Assembly (NCBI RefSeq): GCF_004010195.1
Contig: NC_057718.1
Location: 42,006,444 to 42,070,443, forward strand
From: Chiloscyllium plagiosum
Taxonomy: Eukaryota
Reading direction: 5' to 3'
DNA: 64,000 nucleotides
Shown here: one piece after another, positions 11,401-64,000 of the stretch
How the letters are laid out: each line of letters starts with the position of its first letter
How positions within the stretch are numbered: position 1 is the stretch's first letter
The notes under the pieces: model-generated
Told to the model about the DNA's origin: nothing
Databases searched by the model: none
The model's input: the letters and a program-made list of their open reading frames with translations, nothing else
Made by a program: the position numbers and the translations under genes

Positions 11401-13312
11401 GAGTGAACAACACTTTAATCCAAAAAGGGAATACTTGCTCCATCCCAGACCCATTGCAACCATAAACTTATAATTGAATTTAGCAGTCCATCATCATACT
11501 TAAATAATAGATGATGCATCAATATTCCTCTCATCCCACAATACCTTGCAACGTTCTTAAGTGATGGGACATTTTCCCCTAGTATTTACCTACTTGAAGT
11601 CATCACTGCTAACTTCTCGAACACTGAGATTACAATGTGAGATTTCCAAGCACCACTGACATTGTGCAATGTATCTTTGACCAGTGTTTCATGCCAAGGT
11701 ACACTCACTCTGCATACAAATACGCAAAGAACTGATTACAACTGAAATATAGCTGGAGTTTGCAAATGCATATTTCTCTCTTTAATGTTATAGCATCCAA
11801 CAAACATGGATCTCATCATAGCGAGTTTTGAGAAGATTTGTAACTCAGGTTGAGGTTCTGGATGTAGGTTTGTTTGCTGAGCTGTAAGGTTCATTTCATT
11901 TGAATACATGGTCTGCTCTGTGTAGTTCCTCTGTGCTGAAGTGTGTGTTGGCTCGTTGCAGCTTTGTTTATGGATGTTAGGATGATTGCTTCTGTAGTTC
12001 AATATTCGCTGTACTGTGACTACACCAAAGACTAAAACACATGGTAGAAGACTCACGCCACTCCATCCACTCCACCCAAGAATTCCTGAAGATCATCAAA
12101 GACACTAAGATTGAAGAGGATGAAATAAATGGTATCCTCTGATGTAACAGCCCTGTTTACATCAATCAACATTAACCTGGCCAAGGAAACACTGACTACA
12201 CTATTAGAAGACCCAAAGACACATACACCAAACACCACTAACATCATCAACAAGGATAATATCATCAAGCTAGTGGACCTATGTCTTACCATACACTTCA
12301 CCTTCAATAACAAAACCTACAGACAAACCAACAGAACACCCATGGGATCTCCGATATCAGGGTTCTTAGCAGAGGCAGTAATGCATAGTCGTGAACAAAC
12401 AGCTCTGCCAACCATCCAACCCAAACTTTGGGTCCACTACATGGATGGTACCTTTGTCATCACTAAACGAAACAAATTAGAGGAAACCTTCAAGACCATC
12501 AATAATACCCTTACTGGCATAAAATTCACTAAAGAGGAGGAAAATAACAAACAACTGCCATTCCTAGATGTCAAGTAGAGCATACAGCGAATGGGGAACT
12601 TCAAACCAGCGTCTACAGGAAAACAACACGTACAGACCAAATATTGAACTACAGAAGCAATCATCCCAACTTCCACAAACAAAGCTGCATCAGAACATTA
12701 TTTCAACGAGCCAACACACACTACAGTACAGAGGAACTAAACAGAGCAGAGGAAAACCACCTATACTGTATATTCAAAAAGAATGGGTACCCAATGAACC
12801 CAGTCTGCCAATTTCTTAGCAACAAACCCAAACAATCAGACAAACATGTCCAGAAACCCTAGCCACTCTCCCCTACATCAAAGACATCTCGGAAATGACT
12901 GCCAGACTACTCAGACCCATTGGCATCATGGTAGCCTACAAACCCACAAACATACTAAAACAGCAGCTAATGAACTTGAATGACCCTATACAGACAACAA
13001 GCAAAACTAATATAATTTACAAAATACCGTGCAAGGACAGTAACAAACACGACATTGGACAACAGGCAGAAAACTAGCCACCAGGATACATGACCACCAA
13101 CTAGCCACAAAACGACCTGACCCTCTCTCACTAGTATCCTTACATACAGATAAGGAAGGACACCACTTCAACTAGGACAACACATCCATCCTAGAACAAG
13201 CCAAACACAGATGCACGCGAGAATTCCTAGAAGCATAGCACTCCAACTGGAACTCTATCAACAAACACATCGAGTTAGACCCCATCTAGGCCCCCCTGAG
13301 AAAAAGAACAGC

Positions 13313-13362
13313 AAGTGACTTCACCACAGGAAGTGACATCACCACAGGAAATGACATCACCA
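13313..13362 (+). repeat. 18-bp tandem repeat, about 3 copies, in the PLE 3' region
   Basis: AAGTGACTTCACCACAGG / AAGTGACATCACCACAGG / AAATGACATCACCA. Confidence 0.85.
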
Positions 13363-13417
13363 ACCCAAAGAAACCCAAACATATACATAGGAATTATCAG
13401 CAGTGTCTCGCCTGATG

Positions 13418-13458
13418 CCCACTGAAGATGTTACCTAGTAGGGTGACAAAACATCTGG
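13418..13458 (+). ncRNA. Degenerate type I hammerhead ribozyme in the PLE 3' terminus
   Basis: CCA-CTGAAGA-T-GTTACC(TAGTAG)GGTGAC-AAAA-CA-TC-TGG. Stem I is CCA/TGG and stem II is intact, but GAAACGTC has decayed to AAAACATC (two CpG-type G>A changes). Confidence 0.7.
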
Positions 13459-15016
13459 AAATGAAATTTCCAGTTCAGTGAGCAAACCTACATCTGTGGA
13501 TCTCATCAAATTCACCATCAAAATGGCACTTACCTTCCCCCTCCGTCCTGGTCTTCATTCCAGTCATTTTCCAGTTGCATTTCACATTAAGAGAATGGCA
13601 AATGATGGCAAGGAACATAGCTCAGGGTAGACACCATCAGTATTGGGCTCTGCCTTGTCATCAGGTATTTCCCTGAAACCTTCATGTTCCCTTTGATCTT
13701 GCACAACCCCGACAGCCCATTTCCACTCACCACTCTCTAATGTGGAGACCCAACACATCAAACTTCACCTTTCACTGTCCTTCCTGTCGCAAGAACTCTG
13801 ACATTACACATTAAGAATGTCCACTCTGTTCCCCATCGCATTCCTTATGGAGGCCAAGGTAGTGGCCAATGTCAATAATACCCCTCCCAAGCCTACTGTG
13901 CCTTCCAATGAGGTTCTGCTTACCTTCAAGCCACCTTGAGCTTTCCCCCACCTCAATGTACTTGCCCCACTTCTACGCAAATCTTATCTTTTCTCTGTCA
14001 CCACTCACCATTCCTCACCACACAGTTCAGTGGATGGGCCCCAAGGCTCCACAACTCTGACCACCTTCAATATCATGTGGGACTGACTAGACTCTTGATC
14101 AATGACATATAATTCCTCCAACTGCTTGTGCTGGCCCTACACCACTGACTGGTGTCCACTGTGAATGAGGAGGACTATGTGCAGACTGTGCCTGTGACTG
14201 ATCGTGTTGAGACCTTCTGATAGAAAGCAGTCCCCCGTAATTGGAGTGAAGACTAACCCTCACCAGTTTCTGACATGACCATTTGGTTGAATACAGTGCA
14301 GTGTGTTTGCTACACAAGTAGCTGGCACATGCTGTCGCTGGTAGATTGAAGTCTCGATGTATCATTCATAAATATGAGCCCCTCCACCTCAACAAGCTCT
14401 TAATGACACGCAACTTGTCTGTATGCCTGCACAAAAGAGCCTGTCAACACAGCAGTGCTGGTAGCTCTTGGGTCTCGGAGTCACTAATACGCCAACAAGC
14501 AAGTCAAAGCAAAGCAAGACAAGACAAGACTTGAATACTGCAAACATGGAGGTAGATGCTAAGTGAGTGATAAGAAAGCAAACAAGTAGCCTTGAAATAC
14601 AGCCTGATTCAATTCATGAATGAGGGTGCAAGTCTGTGCGCATAAAGTGTCCTTGCTCCAGTTTTTTTGCTCCAGAGCACCCTACATTGCAAGTTTATTC
14701 TTCTTGAGTGGCTTACACATGGATTGGAGAAGTCTTATGATGGTCATGAAACATTGGCAAACATTGGATGCCAATGTCTGTGAATGAGATGTACATGCTG
14801 CTTTGCCCATAGATTATGCCCAGAGCTGCTGTTTACTGCTGAGCTACACGGAGGCTCCTCACAGCCAACAGTGATCTGAAGTCATCAGATATCTGCTCTG
14901 TGTCCCATGGTGAGAATTCTCAAAGGAGAAAGTGAGGACTGCAGATGCTGGAGATCAGAACTGAAAATGTGTTGCTGGAAAAGCGCAGCAGGTCAGGCAG
15001 CATCCAAGGAGCAGGA

Positions 15017-15054
15017 GAATCGACGTTTCGGGCATGAGCCCTTCTTCAGGAATC
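15017..15054 (-). ncRNA. Minimal type I hammerhead ribozyme
   Basis: Minus strand reads ATTC-CTGAAGA-A-GGGC-TCAT-GCCC-GAAA-CG-TC-GATT. The catalytic core is complete. Confidence 0.8.
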
Positions 15055-15061
15055 AGATTCA

Positions 15062-15097
15062 ATTCCTGAAGAAGGGCTCATGCCCGAAACGTCGATT
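15062..15097 (+). ncRNA. Minimal type I hammerhead ribozyme
   Basis: ATTC-CTGAAGA(15066-15072)-A-GGGC-TCAT-GCCC-GAAA-CG-TC-GATT. Predicted cleavage is after GUC at 15093. Confidence 0.8.
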
Positions 15098-17275
15098 TTC
15101 CTGCTGCTTGGATGCTGCCTGACCTGCTGCGCCTTTCCAGCAACACATTTTCAGCTGAGAATTCTCAATGTCTAGTTTGTTTGGTGTGTTTGATTAATAA
15201 GGTTTTTAACAAGCTATATTGCCCTTTAACTGGCAATTCGCCACTGCCTAGCAAGAAATGAATAAAACAGCCAGCAAAGTGCTTCCAATAGCAAAAAAGG
15301 CCTTCTGCCAGAACTGTCACCAGAGCTTATATTGCTTAAGTCCCCATAAGATTCCACACCTAATATTCTTTGAGTGAACATTCTTCTTTTCCATTGTGTC
15401 TCTGTGAAAGGTCTTGCAGCTATTTTTACAGTAAAGACACCGTCTAAATACAAACTCATGTTGAACATCTATTAATTACAATATTTTCTGTTTTCATTTT
15501 AGATTGCTGGCATTGGCATTTTCTTCTTTTTTATTATACAAGTCATCTTATCTGACAGCAAGCTTTATTCTCTTAGCTGGTCACAGACAGCTCTGACATT
15601 GAAATCATAGAGAAGTCTATAGCTGCTCATTGCATTCCCCTCCCCATGAACATCCATTCCACTCTACTTAGTAAATGGTAATATTGTGGCAAAGGCTTAT
15701 ATAATAAAGAAAATTGAAGAGGAATCAAGTCAAAGTGTAAGCTTCTTATTCTCACCACTGTCAAACATCGCTTTAGCATCAGAAAAATGGTCATTAAAAT
15801 TATAGCACTCGAAGCCTGCACATCAGTGTTTTGCCTTTCCAGTGAACAGCAGATGGGAACCAAAAAATGTTCACAATGTTGTGATGTGATTTAAATCAGT
15901 TGATGCATTTTGATTGCACAACTAAAAATTACTCCTTTAAAACAGCAGAATTTGTTGTTCAAGTCTTAAGTCAGTCTTTAACAGTTAATTTAGAAAAAAA
16001 GTAACATGACCAAACTGTTCCATTTTGGAGCGACACAGAGCTTGCTGTGCCCATTTTATGTTCCCATTTAATGAAGCTGTTAAAGCAGCAAGAATGACAG
16101 GTTAATTATCCTTTATGAAAGTGGGACAAATTGAACTGTGTCTTTCCATCATTTTTTGATATATCAAGAAGCTCCTGAGGTGCTCAGCCGTCACTCTGGT
16201 GAATACAGCAACTAATCCACTCCACTATTCTCTCTTGACCTGGGTCTCACCAACAGGGGTTTGCAGTATATTGCAGCAGTTTTTGTTTCACATTCAACAG
16301 ATTTCTCTTTATTATGAATTCCAAAAGATTTTTTTTTGAACAGCCATCCATATGTTGGTTGACAGCTCCTGAAATAACTGATGGCTAAATTTAAACTATG
16401 ATGAAAATTAACCCAAGTGTTAAATGCAAACAGACCTGTTCAGAAGAAACCTATCGTGGCAGATGCCAAACAGTCAAAAAATTGTGTAAATTAATGGAGC
16501 CTCACTGGTGACAAGCTGTCAGCAGGTTTGATGGCTTGTGCTTGTGCTTCAGTCCCACAGAACTTGGCCAGAGGGCAGCGTGGACAAGTCTTGTGTTTGA
16601 AAAGACCACGGGAAGCTTGACAGTATTGTTAACTAGATCATCAGCAGTTCATGGTCATAAAGGAATGAATATTCTACAGCCTGCATCAAATATATTTTAG
16701 AATTCATTACATTTTTCATTATTAACCTACATATCTACTGAACTGCTTAATGTAATAATACTGTTTTTAAAAATAACCAAATTTTACACTGGAACTATTT
16801 CATCTTATTTTGACAGAATAACACTCGATACAGAAATTATTCTTTGTTGGCATGGATTCCCTCTGACTGTTATTGTAAGCATCACATATCTCATCAGGTT
16901 ATTAGTTTAAACTTTAATATTTCCAGTACACTGGAACTCACATCTCCCAATCAAACTATATTCTTCACTCAGAACTTGGCGGAAAGATAGCATTGAACAA
17001 TTCAATATATTAATTACGTATTCAACAAAGAATGGTTGCACCTTATCAAAAGCAAGCAATGCTAAAAATGAATGAAATGTACCTGTTATAGATAGAGGAT
17101 TAGTCATTGGACTAGGGAAGAATGGCACTGAATTTTCATGTACCAAATAGATATCAAATCTTCATATATCACAACATAACAGAGAAAGAGGCAATAAAAA
17201 AGAATGAAGAATAAATACCCCTATATTGAAATTGCTACTGCAGAGCTATTTTATGTGAATAAACCTGTTTGAAGG

Positions 17276-17898
17276 CAGTCTAAATATATAATTTTAAAAT
17301 GATTAAAGATAGTATAAGAAAACTTAGATCAGTAAATCAATAAACTTTGCAAGGGATATTAATCATTTTTGCTGAAATGCTGAAAGATAATTTTTCGAAC
17401 CTTATTTTGACCCTTGATTTCACATAATGATCTGCATTTGACTGTAACCAGGTCCTTCGTCCTCATAGGCTAAATGTTAAGTTTAACCCAGAATTATTAT
17501 GGCTACAAACGTGGGAGTAAATATAACGGAAGTGAGAAGTTGTCTATTTGGGTACGCATCATTGTAAAGAGCTTGACTATCTCCACATGATAGAGGTATT
17601 TCAGAAAACTGCAAATTATGTTTGTTCAGCAGCAAAGTTATTCTGTGGATGTCTGATCCATGTAGCAGATTACAATACCTTTGACTTTGCAAACTTTACC
17701 AGTGTGGCGATATGAACTAAGTAACTACATCTTGTGTCCGAAACAGCCAAATGCTTGTTTCTATTCGTCTACTGCTGGACTCCTTTATCTGAATGCATCT
17801 GGTTAATGACAGTCTAAAATATAATTTTAGAATGATTAAAGATAGTATAAGAACACAGGGATCAGTAAATCAATAAACTTTGTAAGGAATATTAATCA
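17276..17898 (+). repeat. Dispersed direct duplication of about 90 bp (17276-17365 and 17810-17898)
   Basis: CAGTCTAAA.ATATAATTTTA.AATGATTAAAGATAGTATAAGAA...GATCAGTAAATCAATAAACTTTG.AAGG.ATATTAATCA occurs twice. Confidence 0.9.
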
Positions 17899-23940: not shown

Positions 23941-24917
23941 GCCGCTTGTGAAGTGGATAAAAGATGGCATGAGTTGTTTTCAATGTCAAGATGGGCCTAA
24001 CCAGATATCTCACCCAACTCTGCCACAAATCTCATCATAGTCCATGTCATTCACAGCCTTAAAGGTTTCCACCCTATTCATCTGAAATGACATAAATTTA
24101 AGGGTCACTCAAGGTGAAAGAGGCCAAGAGGTGGTTGTTGGTTGCGGGTAGTGTTGTAAGAAATGTGTGTAGTTACTGAAAGTGGCAGCACTGATTAATA
24201 AAGACTTAATAGTGGATGAGAAGTCCTGGGTGGTATAAATGGAGCAATAGGGTATGATTTTCTGAAACTTTGGAGGCAGGTTTGGGGATGTTGGTCTGAG
24301 GAAAATGGAAAAATGTACATCAGATCAGGATTCTGACACAACGCCACCCCCACGTGGCTTTTCTGGGAGCAGATTGAGAATACAAAGGGAAATTCACATG
24401 GTTGAGGCAAGAAGACAATTGAAGTTGTTTGGAAAGTCATTAGAGACACATTTATCCACAAATTTCATCTTTGTCAACAGAACATGGGCTCCATGGAAGA
24501 GGCAAAAGGAGGATTTTATTTAATCAAACTGAGGATTTGTTCGTCTAAAGAGCGCCAGTCCTGGCCATTGACAGGCTGCTGGTTAAAGCATTTCTCTGCT
24601 CAGAAAATGCCATCACTTCTTGTCAGGTGACTGCCAACTTCTTAGAAGACATTTCACCTTTTCAGGCATTCCAGCCGTCTTCAGACGCATTTCCATGCTG
24701 CCATTCTTCACACAGGACATTATATTATACAACTCTATATTTCACCCCCACTGAGGGACAAGGGCAGGGAGCTCACTGCTTCTGAAAGTTGCAGCAGCAG
24801 CAGCAGTTGTCTTCTTCTCAGATATATGCTCTTCTGCAGAGCAGTGGGGATGGACATTGAGACTCAGCCAGAATGGAAAGAAATCCCCAGCACAGGGTCT
24901 ACAGGCAGAGATTCAAT

Positions 24918-25050
24918 ATATTTCCTGATGAAGGGTTTTTGCCCGAAACATCGATTCTCCTGCTCCTTGAATGCTGCCTGACCTGCTGTGCTTTTCCAGT
25001 ACCAAACTCTCAACTCTAATCTCCAGCATCCGCAGTCCTCAATCTCAGCT
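24918..25050 (+). mobile_element. Single-arm PLE-derived mini-element with a hammerhead at about 24922-24956
   Basis: CTGATGA-A-GGGT-TTTT-GCCC-GAAA-CA-TC. 11-bp TSD AGAGATTCAAT at 24907-24917 and 25051-25061. Confidence 0.8.
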
Positions 25051-26585: not shown

Positions 26586-28339
26586 TGTTTTTTTTAATCC
26601 AATAATTTCTCAAGCCAACATCATTTTTTGTTTTAGATCAAACTCTTTCTATCTTCATGATAACTTTCCACATTCTGTGAGTCAAGTAATAATAAACACC
26701 ACTAATAGTATGCAAATGACTTATGGTTCAGGCACCGTGAATTATAATGGTGCTTCACCGGTTTCATTATCCACTCCACTGGATTCTCAATTTAAGTTAC
26801 TCAAGAGTCACTGCAAAAGTTAGTCTCACACTGTTTCACTTCACACTAGTCTCAATGTTTGACAGTCAATTTAGGATCTGTGAAAAGCTGGAACTGCTCA
26901 ACATTGATGTTAAACTTGTGTGAATGCACCATAAACTTCTTGATGATATACCTCTTAAAACTATTTTGTTTTTGAAGCTTTAGTCATGAGTGGTTTATTT
27001 TAAACAAGTGAAGAATGCTAATATTACTTGAGGCCATAGATGACTTCCCGAGACAATGTCAATACTGTTATTCTAAGTGTTCCTACAGGCTGCACCTGAC
27101 CTGTGAGTTCAAATGCACTCAGTTTTCAGCATTGTTTTTATGCCTAACAAGGACAAACAGGTTATTTGTTTGTAATTTCTCCTAAAGAATAATCATTAAT
27201 TTTCTAATACTCTGATTGTTGCAGCTCAGCTCAATTGAGTATACCTCATCCAGATTACTCCTGTGGGGTGGTTGTTGGGCTGTGTGTTGACAGGTTTATT
27301 TATTATGTTTTCCCCAAACAGACATGTTATTTTCATCAAGCTGTTGCTTGCTTTAGGTTCCTGCTTTCAAATGAAAGTAGTTCTGTCATCACATGAATGT
27401 TGTTTGTTTCGCTGAAGTCTGGCTGTGCATTGAGCAAACACAGCAGATGGGAATATGACAGTAATATATGTTTACAAGTACTGTTGGTGACTATTCTCTG
27501 CAGGTTGACAGAAGTGACTAAAGGATGCAGTACAAAGTGTCACCAAGCCGCTGCATAAGTGATGCTTTCCCAGACATCTCAGAAACCAGAGCACACCAGT
27601 AAACTGTGGGGGTTTTGTTAAAAAAAAAATTCTAGTGTATAGGATTAAAATAAATGTAAGAATATAGTGAAGTTAGAGGTAAAGATAAAGGAGCATAATG
27701 ATTGGATGATGGCCATTGACAAATCTCTGAACAAAATTTACTGTTATACATCTGTTTTTTGAAAAGTAAAGCCAATCACAGCCAGTAAAGGAAAACTAAT
27801 TTCACTACATAATGAGAGAAGGATAAACATATACTGAATTATAATCTTCTAATTTTGATACTCAAAGCTGATATAAGTTTAATCTAAATTCACAAAAATC
27901 TTTGGGCTGCTGAAATAAAATTAATTGCAACATTTTTCATTCATTATTCCTGAATCTTTTAACCTATGTTTTTATACAATGTTGGTGAAGGTGGTCTAAC
28001 TAACTAACTCCAGGCACTTCTTTTATGTTTGCAAGGAAAATTCTATTTTCACAATGAAACATTGATTGAGTAATAACACCATTTAAAATGTTCATAAATG
28101 TGGGTCACTTACCTTTTGCTTCATAGCTTTCATTCTGTGAATGATATTTGTCTTCGTAAATGGTGAATAAACCCTGAAACTCGGAAATTACATCACCACT
28201 TTCCTGTTGAGATTTCCCTATATTAGAATGGACATTTGCATTCTGCACACAGCAGAATCCCACCTCATATGTGACATTCTTTACTTTCTACTATCAGAAG
28301 AGTTTGAGATGAAAGACCATGGGCATCTTCTGGAAGAAG

Positions 28340-28556
28340 CTGAAAATGTGTTGCTGGAAAAGCGCAGCAGGTCAGGCAGCATCCAAGGAGCAGGAGAATC
28401 GATGTTTCTGGCATGAGCCCTTATTCCCGTCGTAAGAAGGGTTCATGCCCGAAACGTCGATTCTCCTGCTCCTTGGATGCTGCCTGACCTGCTGCGCTTT
28501 TCCAGCAACACATTTTCAGCTCTGATCTCCAGCATCTGCAGTTCTCACTTTCTCCT
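28340..28556. mobile_element. Fold-back PLE-derived mini-element, family 1
   Basis: Inverted arms. TSD ATCTTCTGGAAGAAG at 28325-28339 and 28562-28576. Hammerhead cores are partly mutated. Confidence 0.88.
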
Positions 28557-28985
28557 AGAAGATCTTCTGGAAGAAGGCTTGTCACCCAATACTTTTCATT
28601 TAAATTATTTTTTAGGCAAGCACCATTTAATTATACACCAAGATAATACATTATGAGATCCAATCATGTAAACTTGATAAGTTAAAACTGCAAACCATCA
28701 TATGTCTGAGATGTAAGCTCTAGGTTTTTGCTTGACTCACATTGAGTTTAAAAAGAAATTGCAATAATTGAATTGTTTTACTTTTAATGTGATCTTGACA
28801 TTAATAAAGCTCTCTGTATAAACTGCAAAATGTTAAATAGAAAGGAGTCTTTTATATACTTACATTTGAAAAGAAAAGAGTGCCGAGCCAACCTACTTTG
28901 TTGATCATCTTTTGTATTCCACAGCTTATGGTTTCAGCATAGTGTCACTTCTTGGCAGATGAAAAGCTGCCTATATGGGATTTAG

Positions 28986-29083
28986 AGCTGGAAATGTGTT
29001 GCTGGAAAAGCGCAGCAGGTCAGGCAGCATCCAGGGAACAGGAGAATCGACGTTTCGGGCATAAGCCCTTCTTCAGGAAAGGG
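28986..29083 (-). mobile_element. Single-arm PLE-derived mini-element with an intact hammerhead (29044-29079)
   Basis: Minus strand reads TTC-CTGAAGA-A-GGGC-TTAT-GCCC-GAAA-CG-TC-GATT. TSD ATGGGATTTAG at 28975-28985 and 29084-29094. Confidence 0.85.
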
Positions 29084-32000: not shown

Positions 32001-32119
32001 AATTCCTTTGGGAATTGGAAGGCATTTTGAAGAAAGTTTGGTTGCATGGATACTGCTGTAATTCTTAAAGGGGTTATGGTGTGGTATATGTGGTAATGAC
32101 ATTGGCCCTAACTTTGTAA

Positions 32120-32244
32120 AGGAGAAAGTGAGGACTGCAGATGCTGGAGATCAGAGCTGAACATGTGTTGCTGGAAAAGTGCAGCAGGTCAGGCAGCATC
32201 CAAGGAACAGGAGAATCGACGTTTCGGGCATAAGCCCTGAAGAA
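32120..32244. mobile_element. PLE-derived mini-element left arm, truncated by a SINE
   Basis: Same sequence as 14924-15040. Ends in CTGAAGAAG directly at the SINE start. Confidence 0.85.
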
Positions 32245-39100: not shown

Positions 39101-41827
39101 TCCTTTAACCCCATTCATGGTGCCTGGTTATTTTACAGTCCAGTGAGGTGCTTTGGAGTATTTTACTACATTAAAGGTACTATATAGGTAAAGGCAACTT
39201 TTGTTGCTGCAATTTTTGTTACTGCTCAAATAAATGCACATTCAAATTACAAACTGCTGAACTTTAACACAATATCAATCAGCACTTTTAAAGCATTGAT
39301 GGGAAATTATTGTCACATGATAATATTGTATGAACCTTCAGTGTGTTTGCATAAAAATCCTCTGTCTGCTATGTTAACAGAAATGCTCAGTGAAACCACA
39401 GGAAAGCACATGGAGGAATTTAATACAAGTATGTTAACATATGTATGAAATCACAATTTCCAGGCCAATATTGCTTCAAAAAGATTGACCCCTTGTGAAT
39501 TCTGGGAAGGATTGGTTTTAAATGTTATTTATATTCCATTGCAGCAATTTGTTTTATGTCCTTAATCAGTGGAATGACTAGAATTTATAAAATTGATCAT
39601 TTAATTACTGGAGACAGTGACTTTGTGATAATGCACTACCTACAGCAGTCTTCTTTATTATATGAAATTAATATTTAAAAATCAGTAATTAACAGGCTAT
39701 ATCTTCAAATAATTATTTATAATTTTATCTGAAATAAACTCTGGCCAGTTTTGGCCATTTGGATTTATTCATTAATGTTAATAACAGAACCAATCTGCTG
39801 TAAACAATATGCATTGCAATCATTTATTTATATCTTTCAATTTGGAAATATTATACCACCAAAAGAAGTTCATGTTTATTTATATTTGGAAGAGTGAAAG
39901 TCCTGTGCATTATTAAAAGAGCATGGGAAGTAGCTGGAAACGTTATATCACAAAGTCACAGTCATAGAGGTCTACAGCACAGCAAAAGGCCCTTTGGCCC
40001 ATTGATTCTGCACCAGTCAAAGACAGCTACCTAACTATTCTAATCTCATTTTTCAGCACTTGGCCCATAGCCTTGTATGTTTTGGCTTCACAAGTGTACA
40101 TGTAAATACAACTTAAATGTTATGAGGGTTTCTGCCTCTACGTCTTTACAGGCAGTAAGTTCCAGATTCCTACCACCTTCTGAGCGAAAAGCAATTTCCT
40201 AATCCTCTAAACTTCCAGCCTTTTCCCTTAAATTTGTGCCTCCCGCTCATTGATTTCTCCATTGAGGGAAATGCTTCTTTCTGTCTCTACTTTCTATGCC
40301 CTTCATGATTTTGTATATCTTGATCATGTCTCCCCCCGCACCCCCCCACCCCTCCCCATCCCACCTCAGTCTCCTCTGCTCCAAGGAAAACAATCCCAGT
40401 CTCTTCATTTTTCTTCATAACTCTCCATCCCAGGCAACATCCTGGTAATCTCCTCTGCATCCTTTGAATGCAATCCCATCTCTCCTATAATGTGGATTCC
40501 AGAAATACACACAATACTCAAGTTGTGACCTAATCAATGTTTAATACAGTTCCAACATAAGCTCTCTGCTCTTAAACTCTATGCTTTCGCTAAAGAAGGT
40601 ATGTATTTCATATGCCTTCTTAACCACTTTATCTACCTTAAGGGACCAGTGGACTGCTGATCCTCAATGCTTCTCACGATTCTGCTATTCATTAAGTATT
40701 TTCTTGCCAAGTGCATCACCTCACACTTATGTGTATTGAATTCCATTTGCCACTGGTCAGTCTGACCAGCCTGTCTACATCTACTTGTAATCTCAGACTG
40801 TCCTCCTCACTATTTACCACCCAATTTTCATTTCATCCACAAACTAATTGATCAACCCTTCTACATTCAAATCTAAATTAGTTACATATACCACAAACAG
40901 CAAAGACTCCAATTCTAATTCTTCCAGAATCCCACTGAATACAGCTTCCAGTCACAAAAACAGCCTTTGACCATCACCCACTGCTTCTTGCCAAATCTGG
41001 ATCCAATTCACAGATCTCCTTGGATTCCATAGGCTCATACCTTCACTGTCAGTCACCCTGCAGTTGCTTATCAAAATCATTGTCGAAATCCAAGTAGACT
41101 ACATTAAATACATTTTCCTTATCTGCACACCTGGTCACCTTTTTGAAGAATTCAATCAAGTTTGTAAGCCATGACCTCCCCTTAAAAAAACTATGCTGAC
41201 TCTTCTTGACTAATCCCTGACTCTCCAAATTCAGATTAATTCTGTCCCTCAGAATTGCCTCAAATAGTTTCCCCCTCACTGAAGTTGCACTGTGGACCTA
41301 TGTTTCCTGGTTTAATCCTTGTTCCCTTTTTGAATAATGGTACCACATTGGCAGCCATCCAGTCCTCTGACACCTCTCCTGTGACCAGAGAGGAATTGCA
41401 AATTATTGCCAGCACTCCTGCAGTTTCCTCCCTTGCATTACTCCATAGCTTGGGATTCATTTCATCTGCACCTGAAGATTAGTTTACCTGTAAACCTGCA
41501 AGACCACTCAGAACCTCCTCTCTATTTATGCTAATTTATTTAAATATATCTCAGGCCTCTTCCTGATTTCTATAATCACACATCCCTTACACAAATGAAC
41601 ACTGACACAAAGTATTCAAACCCTACCTACATCCTCCAGCTCCTTGCAAAAATTACCATTGTGGTCCTTAATGGGCCCTAGTTCATTCCCTAGTTATCCT
41701 TTTACCCTTAATGTGCTTGTAAAATAACTTTGGATTTTCCTTAATTTAACTTGTCATTTTTCTTTCATGCTTGCATTTTGCTCTCCTACTTTCCTTTTTA
41801 AGTTTCCCTTTACAAATTCTGCACTAG

Positions 41828-43427
41828 GAGAAAGTGATGTCTGCAGATGCTGGAGATCAAAGTTGAAACTTTATTGCTGGAACAGCACAGCAGGTCAGGC
41901 AGCATCCAGGGAACAGGAGATTCGACGTTTCGGGCACAGGCCCTTCTTCAGGAATGAGCAGAGAGTGTTCAGCAGGAGAAGATAAAAGGTAGGGAGGAGG
42001 GACTTGGAGGAGGGGCGTTGGAAATGTGATAGGTGGAAAGAGGTCAAGGTGAGGGTGATAGGTCGGAGTAGGATGGAGGCGGAGAGGTCAACAAGAAGAC
42101 TGCAGGTCAGGAAGGCGGAGCCGGGCTGGAGGGATTCGGCTGAGACAAGGTGGGGGGAGGGGGGATGAAGAAACTGGTGAAGTCCAAGTTCATCCCCTGT
42201 GGTTGGAGGGTTCCCAGTCGGAAGATAAGACGCTCCTCCTCCGACCGTCACGTTGTTGTGGTTTGGCGGTGGATGAGTCCAATGACCTGCATATCCTCGG
42301 TGGAGTGGGAGGGGGAGTTAATGGTCATCTTAGTTTCACTTCCTCTTTCATTCTTTCACACATTGATCATTTTATAAGTTTGTCCCCCTTACAACAGCTT
42401 GTTCCTTTTATCTAACTAAGTTCATAGACCTTTATCAAGGTGAGATGGCATCAATAATCAATTGATGCATCTGTTTAAAATCTGCAGTGGCACTTCCTAG
42501 TGATTAACAATTATTGCAATGGATGCGACTTAATGTTGTTCAAAATGTATTAATTTCCTTTTAACATAAGAACCATATCTAACTGGACAGTAACTGTTAT
42601 TATCCATTACAAGTTAACACTCAAAATAACCACAGAAACAAGACCATTCTAAAGCGCACTGAAATGTGACCTGTGTAAAAGCCTTTGTACCTCAAAAGAG
42701 TTTCCTCATTTGTCTTCTGATTAGCAACCATAAACTGTGTCTCTTCTCTTCAGAAGGCTGGACAGAATAGATGAAGGGATGATGTTTCCCCTGGCTGGGG
42801 AACAGAGACCAGAATGAGGAAAACAGTCTCAGGAGAGGTCTTGTTTATGCAGTTGGCAATCTTGGACTCAGTTGAAGAGAAATGTCTTCACTCAGAGGGT
42901 GGTGAAACTATGGAATTCTCTACCACCATTGAAGCCAAGTCCCTGAATATACTTAAGAAAGAAATAGATTTCAAGAGGCTAAACATGTTAAGGATATGAG
43001 GAGGGATTGAGAGTATGGTGGGGTTGTTTGAATGGTGTGTTCCTGAATCTGTTTTCCATATTTCTATGTTACAATGTTCATTTCAGTTAGAAAATAGCAA
43101 TCAAACCATGAACATTAATTATGATCTAGATATGGATATATTCCCTATGGAAGTTATTAAACAACTAACCATAATGTCGGAATATAATTTAATTTCTCAC
43201 CTTGAGCCCAGTCGAAGGAGGGTGTCGGTGGAAGGGTACTGGGTGGTACGGCGGGAAAGGAAGAAGCGGAGTGCTTTGAGTCCTTCGTGATGGGGGATGG
43301 AGGTGTACAGGGACTGGATGTCCATGGTGAAGATGAGGCGTTGGGGACCGGGGAAGCGGAAATCCTGGAGGAGGTGGAGGGCGTGGGTGGTGTCACGAAC
43401 GTAGGTGGGGAGTTCTTGGACTAGTTC
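41828..43427 (-). mobile_element. Penelope-like element (Neptune-like) with its interior replaced by foreign DNA
   Basis: 43200-43425 encodes LPTYVRDTTHAL...LIFTMDIQSLYTSIPH (RT). 42170-42319 encodes EEERLIFRLGTLQPQGMNLDF (GIY-YIG C-terminus). 9-bp TSD CTGCACTAG at 41819-41827 and 43428-43436. Confidence 0.85.
41920..41955 (-). ncRNA. Minimal type I hammerhead ribozyme in the PLE 3' end
   Basis: ATTC-CTGAAGA-A-GGGC-CTGT-GCCC-GAAA-CG-TC-GAAT, with a perfect 4-bp stem I (ATTC/GAAT) and stem II. Confidence 0.85.
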
Positions 43428-51888: not shown

Positions 51889-53004
51889 GAGAAAACACAC
51901 ATGCCTGTATCAGGTGACTGGCAGATTCCAAGTGATACTGTACCAAGAGGCTATGAGATATCATCAGGCTGTACAGAGCTCAGCATAACTCAAACAGTAA
52001 TTTTTTTCTGAACCATTCCCTTGTTCAATATCTCCCTTAAGCTTTGTTTCCTTTAGCTAATCTATTACACAATCCCGTGCATAACTGTATAACATTAACC
52101 AATATCCTACTATCCTATGGTTTCTGACTTCACAAATTCAAACAGTGCACAATATTCCCAAATACATGCATTTTAGATTTAGAAGATTAGCATGCCTTTG
52201 CTTTGTAGAGATTGACCTTCCTTGTAGACATTGTTGGTCCATTATCTCACCTGGAGACCCTTTAATTTTATGATTGTCCATCATGGAGGACAGAGCTGAA
52301 AATGTGTTGCTGGAAAAGCACAGCAGGTCAGGCAGCATCCAAGGAACAGGAGAATCAACGTTTCGGGCATAAGCCCTTCTTCAGCCCGAAACGTCGATTC
52401 TCCTGTTCCTTGGATGCTGCCTGACCTGCTGTGCTTTTCCAGCAACACATTTTCAGCTCTGATCTCCAGCATCTGCAGTCCTCACTTTCTCCTCCCCATG
52501 GAGGACAATTGTACAAGTGAAACAGACACTTCCTTTTTTGTCCTATCCCGGATTTATGAAGAGGGAAATCTGTTTCCAATTGGAAAAGGTAGTCTCGCTT
52601 TTATGGTATCCTGGATTGTTAGAGCAGACAGCTTCTTCTTTGGGATCTTTCCCTGGATATGCCGCTTAACACCCTTGAGATGTTAATGATGCTGACATCT
52701 TCAGTTACCCTTTGTGATTGTTTGAGTTGTGAAATGGACTTTTCCAAATTCTTTTAAATATTTTACCAAATGGTAGCTCAGCTGCAACCCTGTCGCTAGC
52801 ATTGATTGCTTTGTTTTATTAATGTGTTCGGCAGACTGTTACATTATATGGACAACTTCAGTTGAAAGGTGGCAAATGAACTTCAGAAAGAATTATTGCT
52901 TGAGCTATGCTGAGCTCTGTTCAGTCTGATGATATCTCACAGCCTCTTGGTAGAGTATCAGTTGGAATCTGCCAGTCACCTGATACAGACATGTGTGTTT
53001 TCTC
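51889..53004. repeat. Inverted repeat pair of about 124 bp (51889-52012 / 52882-53004)
   Basis: GAGAAAACACACATG.CTGTATCAGGTGACTGGCAGATTCCAA.TGATACT.TACCAAGAGGCT... and its reverse complement. Confidence 0.9.
52293..52496. mobile_element. Fold-back PLE-derived mini-element, family 1
   Basis: Inverted arms. Minus-strand hammerhead at about 52352-52384 (GUU triplet). TSD CATGGAGGACA at 52282-52292 and 52497-52507. Confidence 0.88.
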
Positions 53005-59463: not shown

Positions 59464-62400
59464 TAGAACATAGAACAGTACAGCACAGAACAGGCCCTTC
59501 AGCCCACGATGAAGTGCTGACCATTGATCCTCATGTCAGGTAAACCTAATGTACGAACCCTCAAATTTCTGTGACCATATGCATGTCCAGCAGCGTCTTA
59601 AATATCCCCAATGACCTCGCTTCCACAACTGCTGCTGGCAACGCATTCCATGCTCTCACAACTCTCTGCGTAAAGAACCCGCCTCTGACATCCCCTCTAT
59701 ACTTTCCGCCAAACTGCTTAAAACTATGACCCCTCGTGTTAACAATTTCTGCCCTGGGAAAAAGTATCTGGCTATCAACTCTATCTATGCCTCTCATTAT
59801 CTTGTATACCTCAATTAGGTCGCCTCTCTTCCTTCTTTTTTCCAATGAAAAAGGTCCGAGCTCAGTCAACCTCTCTTTGTAAGATAAGCCCTCCATTCCA
59901 GGCAGCATCCTGGTAAACCTCCTCTGAACCGTCTCCAAAGCATCCATATCTTTCCTATAATAGGGCGACCAGAACTGGACAAAGTATTCCAGTCTAACCA
60001 AAGTTTTATAGAGCTGCAACAAGATCTCATGGCTCTTAAACTCAATCCCCCTGTTAATGAAAGCCAAAACACCATATGCTTTCTTAACAACCCTGTCCAC
60101 TTGGGTGGCAATTTTAAGGGATCTATGTTCCTGCACATCAAGATCCCGCTGTTCCTCCACACTGCCAAGAATCCTGTCTTTACTCCTGTACTCAACTTTC
60201 AAGTTCGGCCTTCCAAAATGCATCGCTTTGCATTTATCCAGGTTGAACTCCATCTGGCACCCCTCAGCCCATCTCTGCATCCTNNNNNNNNNNNNNNNNN
60301 NNNNNNNNNNNNNNNNNNNNNNNNNNNNNNNNNNNNNNNNNNNNNNNNNNNNNNNNNNNNNNNNNNNNNNNNNNNNNNNNNNNNNNNNNNNNNNNNNNNN
60401 NNNNNNNNNNNNNNNNNNNNNNNNNNNNNNNNNNNNNNNNNNNNNNNNNNNNNNNNNNNNNNNNNNNNNNNNNNNNNNNNNNNNNNNNNNNNNNNNNNNN
60501 NNNNNNNNNNNNNNNNNNNNNNNNNNNNNNNNNNNNNNNNNNNNNNNNNNNNNNNNNNNNNNNNNNNNNNNNNNNNNNNNNNNNNNNNNNNNNNNNNNNN
60601 NNNNNNNNNNNNNNNNNNNNNNNNNNNNNNNNNNNNNNNNNNNNNNNNNNNNNNNNNNNNNNNNNNNNNNNNNNNNNNNNNNNNNNNNNNNNNNNNNNNN
60701 NNNNNNNNNNNNNNNNNNNNNNNNNNNNNNNNNNNNNNNNNNNNNNNNNNNNNNNNNNACAAGGTCCTTTTCTTTAGTAAAGACAGAAGCAAAAAACTCA
60801 TTTAGGGCTTCCCCTACCTCCTCAGACTCTATACACAAGTTCCCTATGCTATCCCTGATCGGCCCTACTCGTTCTTTGATCATTCTTTTATTCCTCACAT
60901 ACGTGTAAAATGTCTTTGGATTCTCCCTAATCCTTCCTACCAAGCCTTTTTCGTGCCCCCTCCTGGCTCTCCTCAAACCATTTTTGAGCTCCTTCTTCAC
61001 CTATCTGTAATCCTCTAGAGCTGAGCAAGACCCTTGCTTCCTCCACCCTACGTAAGCTGCCTTCTTCCTTTTGACGAGAAGCTCATCTGCTCTCATCATC
61101 CAAGGTTCCTTTATCTTACCCTTTCTTCCTGTCTCAGACGAACACATTTAGGCATCACTCGCAACAACTGTTCCTTAAAAAGTCTCCACATGTCTATAGT
61201 GCCCTTTAAAAACACTTTAAATAGATGCGTTTCCACTCAATATAAATTGGAAAATATTACTCATGTATCTGACACATCGAATGGGAATGGGAAACAAACC
61301 CATTGCAGATGGTCGAGAAAGATTGGCGGGACATATAGAGAGAGCAATTGCTCCCAGTCCATGCTTCCCAACTCACGTCTGATAGCATCATAGTTTCCTT
61401 TTCCCCAATTAAATATCCTCCCATTGTGCCTGCTTCTCTCCTTCTCCATAGATATGTAGAATGTGAGGCAGTTGTGGTCACTATCACCAAAATGCTCTCC
61501 CACTGCTAGATCTGACACCTGCCCCGCTTCATTGCCGAGCACCAAATCCAAAATGGCCTCTCCCCTCGTCGGCCTGTCAACATACTGAGTTAGGAAACCG
61601 TCCTGAACACACCTTACAAAAATAGCTCCTTCCAAACCACCTGCCCGAAGGAGGTTCCAATCAATACTGGGAAAGTTAAAGTCACCCATTACAACAACCC
61701 TACTACATTCACACTTTTCCAAAATCTGCCGACCTATGCTTTCTTTAATCTCCCTGCTGCTATTGGGGGGCCTGTAGTAAACCCCTAATGAGGTGACTGC
61801 TCCCTTGCTGTTCCTAATTTACACCCATANNNNNNNNNNNNNNTCCCTATTCTTTTTAAATGTTCTAAACCCTGGAACATCCAGCAACCCTGAGAAACCC
61901 ACGTCTCTGTTATGGCCACAACATCATAGCACCAGGTACTGATCCATGCTCTAAGCTCATCACTTATTCCTGATACTCCTTGCATTAAAGCAAACACACT
62001 TTAACTGATCCCTTGGTTCTTTCCCAGGAAATTCCTTCCCACTGGCTGCGCTACCTCTTGCTATTGCCTCATCTCCATCGACTCTCACCACCGGTATATA
62101 GCTCAGGTTCCCACCCCCCTGCCACACTAGTTTAAACCCTCCTGAACCACTCGAGCAGACCTTCCACCCAGGACATTGGTCCCCTTCCAGTTCAGGTGCA
62201 ACCCGTCCTTCATGTACAGGTCCCACCTACCCCAGAAGGCATCCCAATTATCTACATATCTGAAGCCCTCCCTCCTACACCAGCTGCGCAGCCACGTGTT
62301 ACCCAGCTGCACCCACTCCCTGTTCCTCGCCTCGCTATCTCGTGGCACCGGTAGTAAACCCGAGAACACTACTCTGTTCGTCCTGCTCTGCAGCTTCCAC

Positions 62401-62950
62401 CCTAACTCCTTGAAATCACTTCTTATATCCTCAATCCTTTTCCTGGCTATATCATTGGTGCCAATATGTAACACGATTTCTGGCTGTTCACCCTCCCCTT
62501 TCAGAATCTTATACACCCGATCGGAGACGTCCAGGACCCTGGCACCAGGGAGGCAACATACCTTCCGGGAATCCCGATCCTGACCACAAAATCTCCGACT
62601 GATTCTCCTAACAATCGAGTCTCCTACCACTAGCGCTTTTCTATTCTGCCCCCTTCCCTTCTGGGCCACAGTGTCGGGCTCAGTGCCAGAGAACTGACCA
62701 CTATGGCTTTCCTCTGGTAGGTCATCCCCTCCCAGCAGTATCCAAGACGATATACTTATTGCTGAGGGGAATGTCCACAAGGGATCTCTGCACTGTCTGT
62801 CTGTCCCCTTTCCTTCCCCTAACTGTAACCCATCTATCCTTTTCCTGAGCCTCAGGAGTGACCAACTGCCGATAACTTCTCTCAATTACCCCCTCAGCCT
62901 CCCGAATGATCTGCAGTTCACCCAGCTCCAGCTCCAATTCCCTGGCTTGC
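59464..62950 (-). mobile_element. Young, near full-length CR1 LINE (ORF1 esterase, ORF2 APE-RT), with assembly gaps
   Basis: Long ORFs 59561-61000, 61261-61722 (VVMGDFNFP...LDLVLGN..SDH) and 62127-62885. (TTCTATG)-type 3' microsatellite tail. N gaps at 60284-60758 and 61830-61843. Confidence 0.95.
62127..62885 (-). pseudogene. CR1 ORF1 SGNH/GDSL esterase domain
   Basis: VVGDSIVR (block I), LPGA, HIGTNDI (block III), DGLHLN (block V). Frameshifted relative to the upstream coiled coil (ELELELGELQIIREAE). Confidence 0.9.
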
Positions 62951-63151
62951 TCCAATGGATATATTTAGGACAGGCGAGACCAGAACCTTAGCCTGAAAAA
63001 TCACTGACAGCTAAATGGATAACTTTTGAATCTGTTCTCATAGTAATTGGAATATCTGGGACAACATTCATCAGAACCTTCACTTCTCCAGGCTATCAAT
63101 CGAGAGTCTACGTCACCTGCCATGGATTCTGTTTCCTGCCCATATTGTTTT

Positions 63152-64000
63152 TAGAGTCGTAGAGTCATAGAGATGTACAACATGGAAACAGACTCTTCGG
63201 GCCAACCTGTCCATGCCGACCAGATGTCCCAACCCAATCTGGTCCCACCTGCCAGGATATGGAGGGCCCATATCCCTCCAAACCCTTTCTATTCATATGC
63301 CCATTCAGATGCCTTTTAAATGTTGCAATTGTACCAGCCTCCACCACTTCCTCTGGCAACTCATTCCATACATGTACCACTCTCTGTGTGAAAGTGTTGC
63401 CCCTTAGGTCTCTTTTATATCTTTCCCCTCTGACCCTAAACCTACGCCCTCTAGTTCTGGATTCCCCAACCCCAGAGAAAAGGCTTTGTCTATTTATCCT
63501 ATCCATGCCCCTCATGATTTTGTAAACCTCTATAAGGTCATCCCTCAGGCTCCGATGCTTCAGGGAAAAAAACCCTAGCCTGTTCAGCCTCTCCCTATAG
63601 CCCAAATCCTCCAACCCTGGCAACATCCTTGTAAATCTTTTCTGAACCATTTCAAATTACACCACATCTTTCCGATAGGATGGAGACCAGAATTGCACAC
63701 AATATTCCAACAGTGGCCTAACCAATGTCCTGTACAGCCGCAACATGACCTCCCAACACCTGTACGCAATACTCTGACCAATAAAAGAAAGCAGACCAAA
63801 TGCCTTCTTCACCATCCTATCTACCTGCCACTCCACTTTCAAGGAACTATGAACCTGCACTCCAAGGTCTCTCTGTTCAGCAACACACCCTCGGACCTTA
63901 CCATTTCATGTATAAGTCCTGCTAAGATTTGCTTTCCCAAAGTGCAGCACCTCACATTTATCTGAATTAAACTCCATCTGCCACCTCTCAGTCCATTGGC
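63152..64000 (-). mobile_element. CR1 LINE 3' part, running off the window end
   Basis: LYRTLVRPLLEYCVQFWSPSYRKD; VQKRFTRMLPGL...DLIEVYKIMRG...FTQRVVHVWNELP. Confidence 0.95.

Follow-up and report, generated by a model that had tools for sequence, protein, structure and literature searches.

Inverted pairs of a Penelope-like terminal unit in Chiloscyllium plagiosum as probable products of single insertions

EN+ Penelope-like elements (PLEs) insert as units composed of a pLTR, an adjoining inverted and 5'-truncated copy, a tail of 30-40 bp and a target-site duplication (TSD) (PMC3846280, PMC8557442). How these inverted ends and tails arise has yet to be defined, according to PMC8557442. The minimal type I hammerheads of metazoan PLEs can also occur as dual motifs on opposite strands, approximately 100-700 bp apart, and have low activity (PMC4209133). 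In the anole Poseidon element PAc, the protein cuts and extends both strands in vitro and uses two internal RT starts that bound the tail, and hammerhead mutants insert normally, the hammerhead being dispensable (Frangieh 2024, PMC11167929). Non-LTR retrozymes consist of tandem direct units with two ribozymes on the same strand and have circular RNA (PMC7229834; 10.64898/2026.07.22.740005). Fold-backs of the architecture considered below have been published before (Arkhipova 2013, Cervera 2014, Craig 2021); a literature search for an account of them in sharks gave nothing relevant.

The hairpin at 14924-15155 lies in a window of 64,000 nt, the whole stretch of C. plagiosum DNA that was analysed. 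EN+ PLE units share with it the head-to-head inverted terminal copies, the tail on one arm, a TSD of the 8-13 bp class, a pLTR hammerhead and a parent with RT plus C-terminal GIY-YIG, whereas here there is no body between the arms and minimal units are very numerous (approximately 29 per Mb in our sample). Compared with the minimal type I hammerheads and dual motifs of Cervera and de la Pena 2014 (PMC4209133), stem II has 4 bp and the motif starts are only 17 nt apart. Poseidon PAc of Anolis (PMC11167929) likewise has two fixed 3' ends flanking the tail and no sign of templates ending at the hammerhead cut, but the parent here has a Neptune/Nematis CX2-5CxxC linker, and its ORF starts after the tail, that of PAc at stem II. 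Non-LTR retrozymes (PMC7229834; 10.64898/2026.07.22.740005) are similarly non-coding and PLE-related and carry a type I hammerhead; in contrast to their tandem units, the hairpin pairs two units in inverse orientation, each strand having a single ribozyme.

Structure of the locus and its parent element

The two 93-nt arms (14961-15053 and 15062-15154) are 97% complementary with a spacing of 8 nt, and the fold has a z of -23.5, with none of 200 shuffles equally good. The sequence-only reading of this DNA had proposed arms of approximately 93 bp, a 13-bp TSD and a Penelope-like origin. All three were borne out, and the arm was shown to form one end of an element with RT and GIY-YIG. The initial 12 nt of the 13-bp TSD are palindromic, and the T at 15156 in its right copy could derive from the element instead of the target. 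The features of an EN+ insertion are present: an inverted 5'-truncated terminal copy adjoins the 5' end, the 37-nt tail falls within 30-40 bp and occurs at one end only, and the TSD belongs to a class of variable length, a flanking direct repeat being detected by a tolerant finder in 30 of 37 sampled pairs. As a single locus, the hairpin is a real and ordinary Penelope-type insertion. Positions in the terminal unit (U) are numbered along the left arm on the minus strand (131 nt): the arm starts at U2 and the core at U6, the cut follows U33, and the tail spans U95-131. Seven copies of the arm family, including this one, lie in the window; the 37-nt tail and the six further copies had escaped the earlier reading.

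Features of the fold-back at 14924-15155 and further family copies in the window
Feature	Position	Strand	Remark
TSD, left copy, 13 bp	14911-14923	+	direct repeat
Penelope tail, 37 nt, left arm only	14924-14960	-	parent counterpart 36 nt upstream of ORF start codon
Left arm	14961-15053	-	parent's terminal unit, inverted
Minimal type I hammerhead motif	15018-15053	-	core from 15049, predicted cut after 15022
Junction, 8 nt	15054-15061	.	first nt is complement of extra G; contains short repeat of arm start
Right arm	15062-15155	+	terminal unit without tail; begins at 5' breakpoint hotspot of family
Minimal type I hammerhead motif	15062-15097	+	core 15066-15093, predicted cut after 15093
TSD, right copy	15156-15168	+	direct repeat
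Six further family copies	24909-25041, 28335-28556, 28984-29079, 32118-32238, 41826-41958, 52284-52493		two fold-backs, solo arms, one with parental UTR

Upstream of many arms in the genome there is a common pyrimidine-rich 3' UTR and, further upstream, GIY-YIG and RT sequence. A search with the RT piece gave 43,769 first-look candidates. One long locus (L148) contains an open frame of 893 aa with RVT_1 (E 6e-8) and GIY-YIG (E 3.5e-4, below the Pfam cut-off), followed by the terminal unit. In some copies, an ORF follows the tail, with its ATG 36 nt beyond it. Because copies extend both into the UTR and RT and into the ORF start, U serves at once as 5' leader and as 3' pseudo-LTR end. The parent of the arm is an autonomous EN+ PLE whose ORF combines RT with a C-terminal GIY-YIG. 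The Neptune clade is defined by a CX2-5CxxC linker before GIY-YIG together with CCHH (PMC8557442). The parent protein (P0001) has C-X4-C-X2-C in the upstream linker and a CxxC inside the nuclease core, which marks the parent as a putative member of the Neptune/Nematis type, Neptune-like by motif. Among 20 long loci, many of them gapped in the assembly, no complete pLTR-ORF-pLTR copy was found. A common 5' start of the long copies was rejected, as it coincides with the truncation point of the reference. The N-terminal part of the L148 ORF (L148:3883-6561) contains several in-frame tandem duplications of approximately 35 codons.

Hammerhead motifs and RNA

The plus-strand motif consists of CUGAAGA (15066-15072), an extra A (15073), stem II (15074-77 with 15082-85), GAAA (15086-89), CG and then UC with C17 at 15093. 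In the minus-strand mirror motif, which starts at 15049, C17 is at 15022. Both have a stem I of only 4 bp including a U-U mismatch, a stem II of 4 bp, an extra A after A9 and a palindromic stem III (ACGU). With the core, these are the features of a minimal type I hammerhead, so that the assignment of such a motif with stem III ACGU to each strand holds by motif reading. In Rfam searches, no hammerhead match was obtained in the whole window at gathering score or in 14800-15300 at E up to 10; the latter gave only generic hairpin and miRNA matches below gathering, and a miRNA identity was rejected on account of these generic scores.

In fold prediction, forcing stems I and II within the fold-back carries a penalty of 58.6 and 57.5 kcal/mol, one value per strand. 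For a single arm, stem II is predicted to form and stem I is not, with a stem I pairing probability of at most 0.01. The proposal that the antisense arm serves as a ribozyme switch gains no support from a fold that costs approximately 58 kcal/mol inside the hairpin. Each transcript contains one sense motif, and therefore neither a cis dimer nor excision of the unit is possible, which leaves the suggested viroid-like architecture unsupported as well. Viroid-like hammerhead RNAs are circular units in which distinct ribozymes process the multimers of each polarity. The present locus differs in being a linear DNA inverted duplication between TSDs with both motifs copied from one sequence. We take the hammerheads of the fold-back to be passengers that would lie hidden within double-stranded RNA upon any transcription of the locus. 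What remains of the earlier interpretation is the PLE origin, the minimal type I hammerhead and the TSD.

Of 82 arms, 76 were in register. Their subfamily variation falls at N7, within loop II and on the 3' side of the cut; other variation consists mostly of CpG decay. A double change in stem II occurred in only 2 of the 76, so there is little covariation. This pattern fits constraint in the parent element. By a strict pattern, both cores are intact in only 1 of 28 sampled fold-backs, so the copy at 14924-15155 is better preserved than most.

In one polyA single-cell RNA run, of which 2% was read, family reads were present on both strands, and 94% of them continue into unrelated flanks. The same run, a weak test of cleavage, contained no RNA ends or back-joints at the cut site, no pile-up of ends and no reads on the unique flanks of the 14924-15155 locus; a second run gave zero family reads. 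At genome scale, the approximately 100,000 near-perfect 93-bp hairpins (an extrapolated number) could be a large source of double-stranded RNA in the host.

Copy number and 5' breakpoints

To estimate frequencies, we used a genome sample drawn from large contigs at round coordinates, with 958,716 non-N bases in total. Its 147 arms were sorted into classes, among them 28 tight fold-backs; in 39 cases parental UTR precedes the arm, 25 are solo arms that begin at U2-6, and a further 27 begin later. Extrapolation gives approximately 545,000 arms and 104,000 fold-backs in the genome, or 29 fold-backs per Mb. By exact count, the 36-nt motif variant of this locus has 4,669 copies, and fold-backs with both cores beginning within 15 nt occur at no fewer than 7,363 loci. 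Many of the best 30 whole-element relatives are near-identical, at 90-95% across the full 232 bp. These were picked by likeness to the query copy and for that reason were left out of frequency claims; they were used for arm concordance and a table of junctions by haplotype. No empty-site contig for the insertion at 14924-15155 was found among the joints and pieces listed. Contigs of a second organism contain the left flank followed by 23-25 nt of the element, below the 31 nt needed for bridging, and only suggest that the insertion is shared.

The 5' breakpoints of the family cluster at U2, which lies 4 nt ahead of the hammerhead core; in most cases an extra G precedes them. The base directly before U2 is non-parental in 8,445 of 38,729 copies; in the first 100 listed, we counted by hand approximately 95 true junctions and a preceding G in 60, A in 23 and T in 17. 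All junction fractions are such hand counts of the first 100 places listed, and the patterns cover younger subfamilies only. On this basis, approximately 1,800 junctions follow an A at U2, against approximately 45 at the position four bases further upstream (27 among 100 listed, with 164 in all). At the hammerhead cut site, junctions after a purine number approximately 310 (about 30 among 100 listed, with 1,046 in all); a control site has approximately 370 (about 25 among 100 listed, with 1,467 in all), so by hand count the cut site has no breakpoint excess over the control site. By these counts, the 5' end of the RNA would fall at hammerhead stem I, and RNA cleaved by the ribozyme does not usually serve as template.

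The extra G lies within the TSD in 5 of 6 solo G copies having a detectable TSD. As the G is target-borne in these cases, a C on the cDNA is deduced from pairing bias; an endonuclease preference for G may alternatively be its source. An extra 3' C on the cDNA would also account for the commonest fold-back junction: two ends of this kind can pair at 4 of 5 positions. U2 is the A within TCATTCC, which we take to be initiator-like by consensus. The Penelope element of D. virilis has an internal promoter with a start inside the pLTR (PMC2377424). Neither a breakpoint hotspot with an extra G nor a tail-orientation test was found in the text of the papers searched.

Junctions, outer ends and origin of the fold-backs

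Among the first 50 listed of the 7,363 loci, 34 distinct junctions were counted by hand. The commonest junction occurs at 1,380 loci. Its first 30 loci represent at least five subfamily haplotypes; the tail lies on a given side in 11 of them and on the opposite side in 14, while 5 were scored as having two. The tail at this junction thus has no strand bias (11 versus 14, p = 0.69). Identical junctions were also found on differing subfamily haplotypes in the table that includes 29 loci selected for query likeness. The outer ends, in contrast to the junctions, are confined to two sites separated by 37 nt, one near U94 and the other near U131, and solo copies end at either of them. Exactly one arm has a tail in 35 of 37 sampled pairs (chosen by coordinate) and in 11 of 13 and 15 of 15 pairs of two pattern-chosen sets. 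A single master would yield one orientation; both are seen, on varied haplotypes, and junctions are therefore likely created anew at each insertion. Many junctions among the first 50 listed contain short copies of adjacent arm sequence, which resemble the templated insertions of polymerase-theta end joining.

We consider it probable (approximately 70%) that in this hairpin the terminal unit of an autonomous Penelope-like element is present twice, back to back, that both copies were joined in one insertion and that the product is likely immobile. The element protein would nick both target strands approximately 13 bp apart, and each nick would prime reverse transcription at one of two internal sites, the end or the start of the tail. 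The template would be an uncut transcript with its 5' end at the breakpoint hotspot. Both short cDNAs would run off this end, often acquiring a C, and would be united head to head via microhomology or small fill-ins. In L1 twin priming, both target nicks prime cDNA and leave an inversion between TSDs; the second priming site is variable and the segments do not overlap. Priming from two nicks would be common to both cases, whereas the sites of the fold-backs are fixed and the segments overlap almost wholly. The anole element, which supports twin priming, belongs to another clade than the parent here. In the literature searched, no paper joined 'twin priming' with 'pLTR', and further searches on insertion mechanism or cap added nothing.

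At 212 of 237 diagnostic calls, the two arms of a pair carry the same subfamily letter (after shuffling, 61% on average and 74% at most). This is expected if both derive from one RNA or one source, and it is equally predicted if the hairpins are dead-end products of self-priming. In that case a single cDNA or an antisense template would fold back on itself and be copied, and the second arm would be trimmed by the endonuclease at the boundary of the tail. Self-priming has been proposed for palindromic inverted junctions (PMC3846280), the tail has been ascribed to endonuclease resolution (PMC8557442), and short arm copies in several junctions look like snap-back products. We nevertheless regard it as unlikely, in view of the lack of strand bias at the commonest junction and of the solo copies that end at both alternative sites. 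Moreover, the arm without the tail reaches further 5' than the tailed arm in 17 of 35 pairs, with the reverse in 7 and equality in 11, which excludes snap-back copying of the tail cDNA for the former cases, although deletions at the palindrome centre after insertion could blur arm lengths. Six of 64 young pairs are discordant at two or more of 4 diagnostic sites. Together, the absence of strand bias, the arm reach and the discordance favour two independently primed cDNAs.

The fixed outer ends, the many whole copies at 90-95% over 232 bp and the recurrence of some junctions are what a self-propagating non-autonomous family would show, its unit being copied by the Penelope protein and its ribozyme regulated by the antisense arm, as the sequence-only reading had supposed. 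That idea now appears very improbable. Recurrent junctions lie on several haplotypes and in both orientations, the junction at 15054-15061 has no match among the 29 best relatives or the first 50 of the 7,363 fold-back loci listed, and both the scarcity of fold-backs with two intact cores (1 of 28) and the folding penalty of approximately 58 kcal/mol oppose it. The anole element also needs RNA 3' of the RT start (PMC11167929), and this is missing from the fold-back copies. Random breakpoints had been named beforehand as the mark of mere truncated or inverted ends, and variable breakpoints were found at the junction, though not at the two outer ends. A different source RNA, namely mini tandems (unit, ORF 5' piece, unit) whose two hammerheads lie on the same strand as in non-LTR retrozymes, is doubtful as the main origin of the short copies. 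Most of 19 loci with an ORF 5' piece do have a second unit 200-600 nt downstream, often started at the hotspot, and retrozymes are reported as PLE derivatives (10.64898/2026.07.22.740005), but the internal joints vary among copies, few reads cross the tail into the ORF, and the cut site is without breakpoint excess. Such sources concern the source RNA only and are compatible with two terminal-unit copies joined in one insertion.

We judge it evenly balanced whether the fold-backs form a genome-wide fossil record of PLE insertion by twin priming, in which an uncut RNA, capped and starting at stem I, is primed at two fixed sites and the run-off cDNAs anneal through a cap-derived C. If true, this would account for two long-puzzling features of the class as a whole, the inverted pLTR and the tail at one end only, and would argue against self-priming. 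The population is of modest importance; its thousands of independent junctions let models of PLE insertion be tested by counting.

Several further loci were recorded. Mini tandems with two same-strand hammerheads 200-600 nt apart (L167, L170, L173-L177, L184 and L185) are retrozyme-like candidates and possible non-autonomous sources. A larger fold-back (L169/L172, G000:C34:38.588 Mb) has the ORF 5' piece and UTR in both arms. At L169:1497, 178 reads exit the tail end into one flank with 86% agreement; the flank contains AATAAA, suggesting that one copy sits within the 3'-terminal part of a host transcript that is expressed. In the window, a decayed Penelope-type element of a different family at approximately 11825-13500 contains RVT_1 (E 2e-6) at 12129-12575, a degenerate hammerhead-like motif near 13424 and an apparent inverted terminal copy near 11825-11890. 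Decayed ORF fragments, presumably of LINE-like type, are located at 59561-61818 and 62127-63656, one with an assembly gap. A local 131-bp duplication (17235-17365 and 17769-17898) has 84% identity between copies 534 bp apart.
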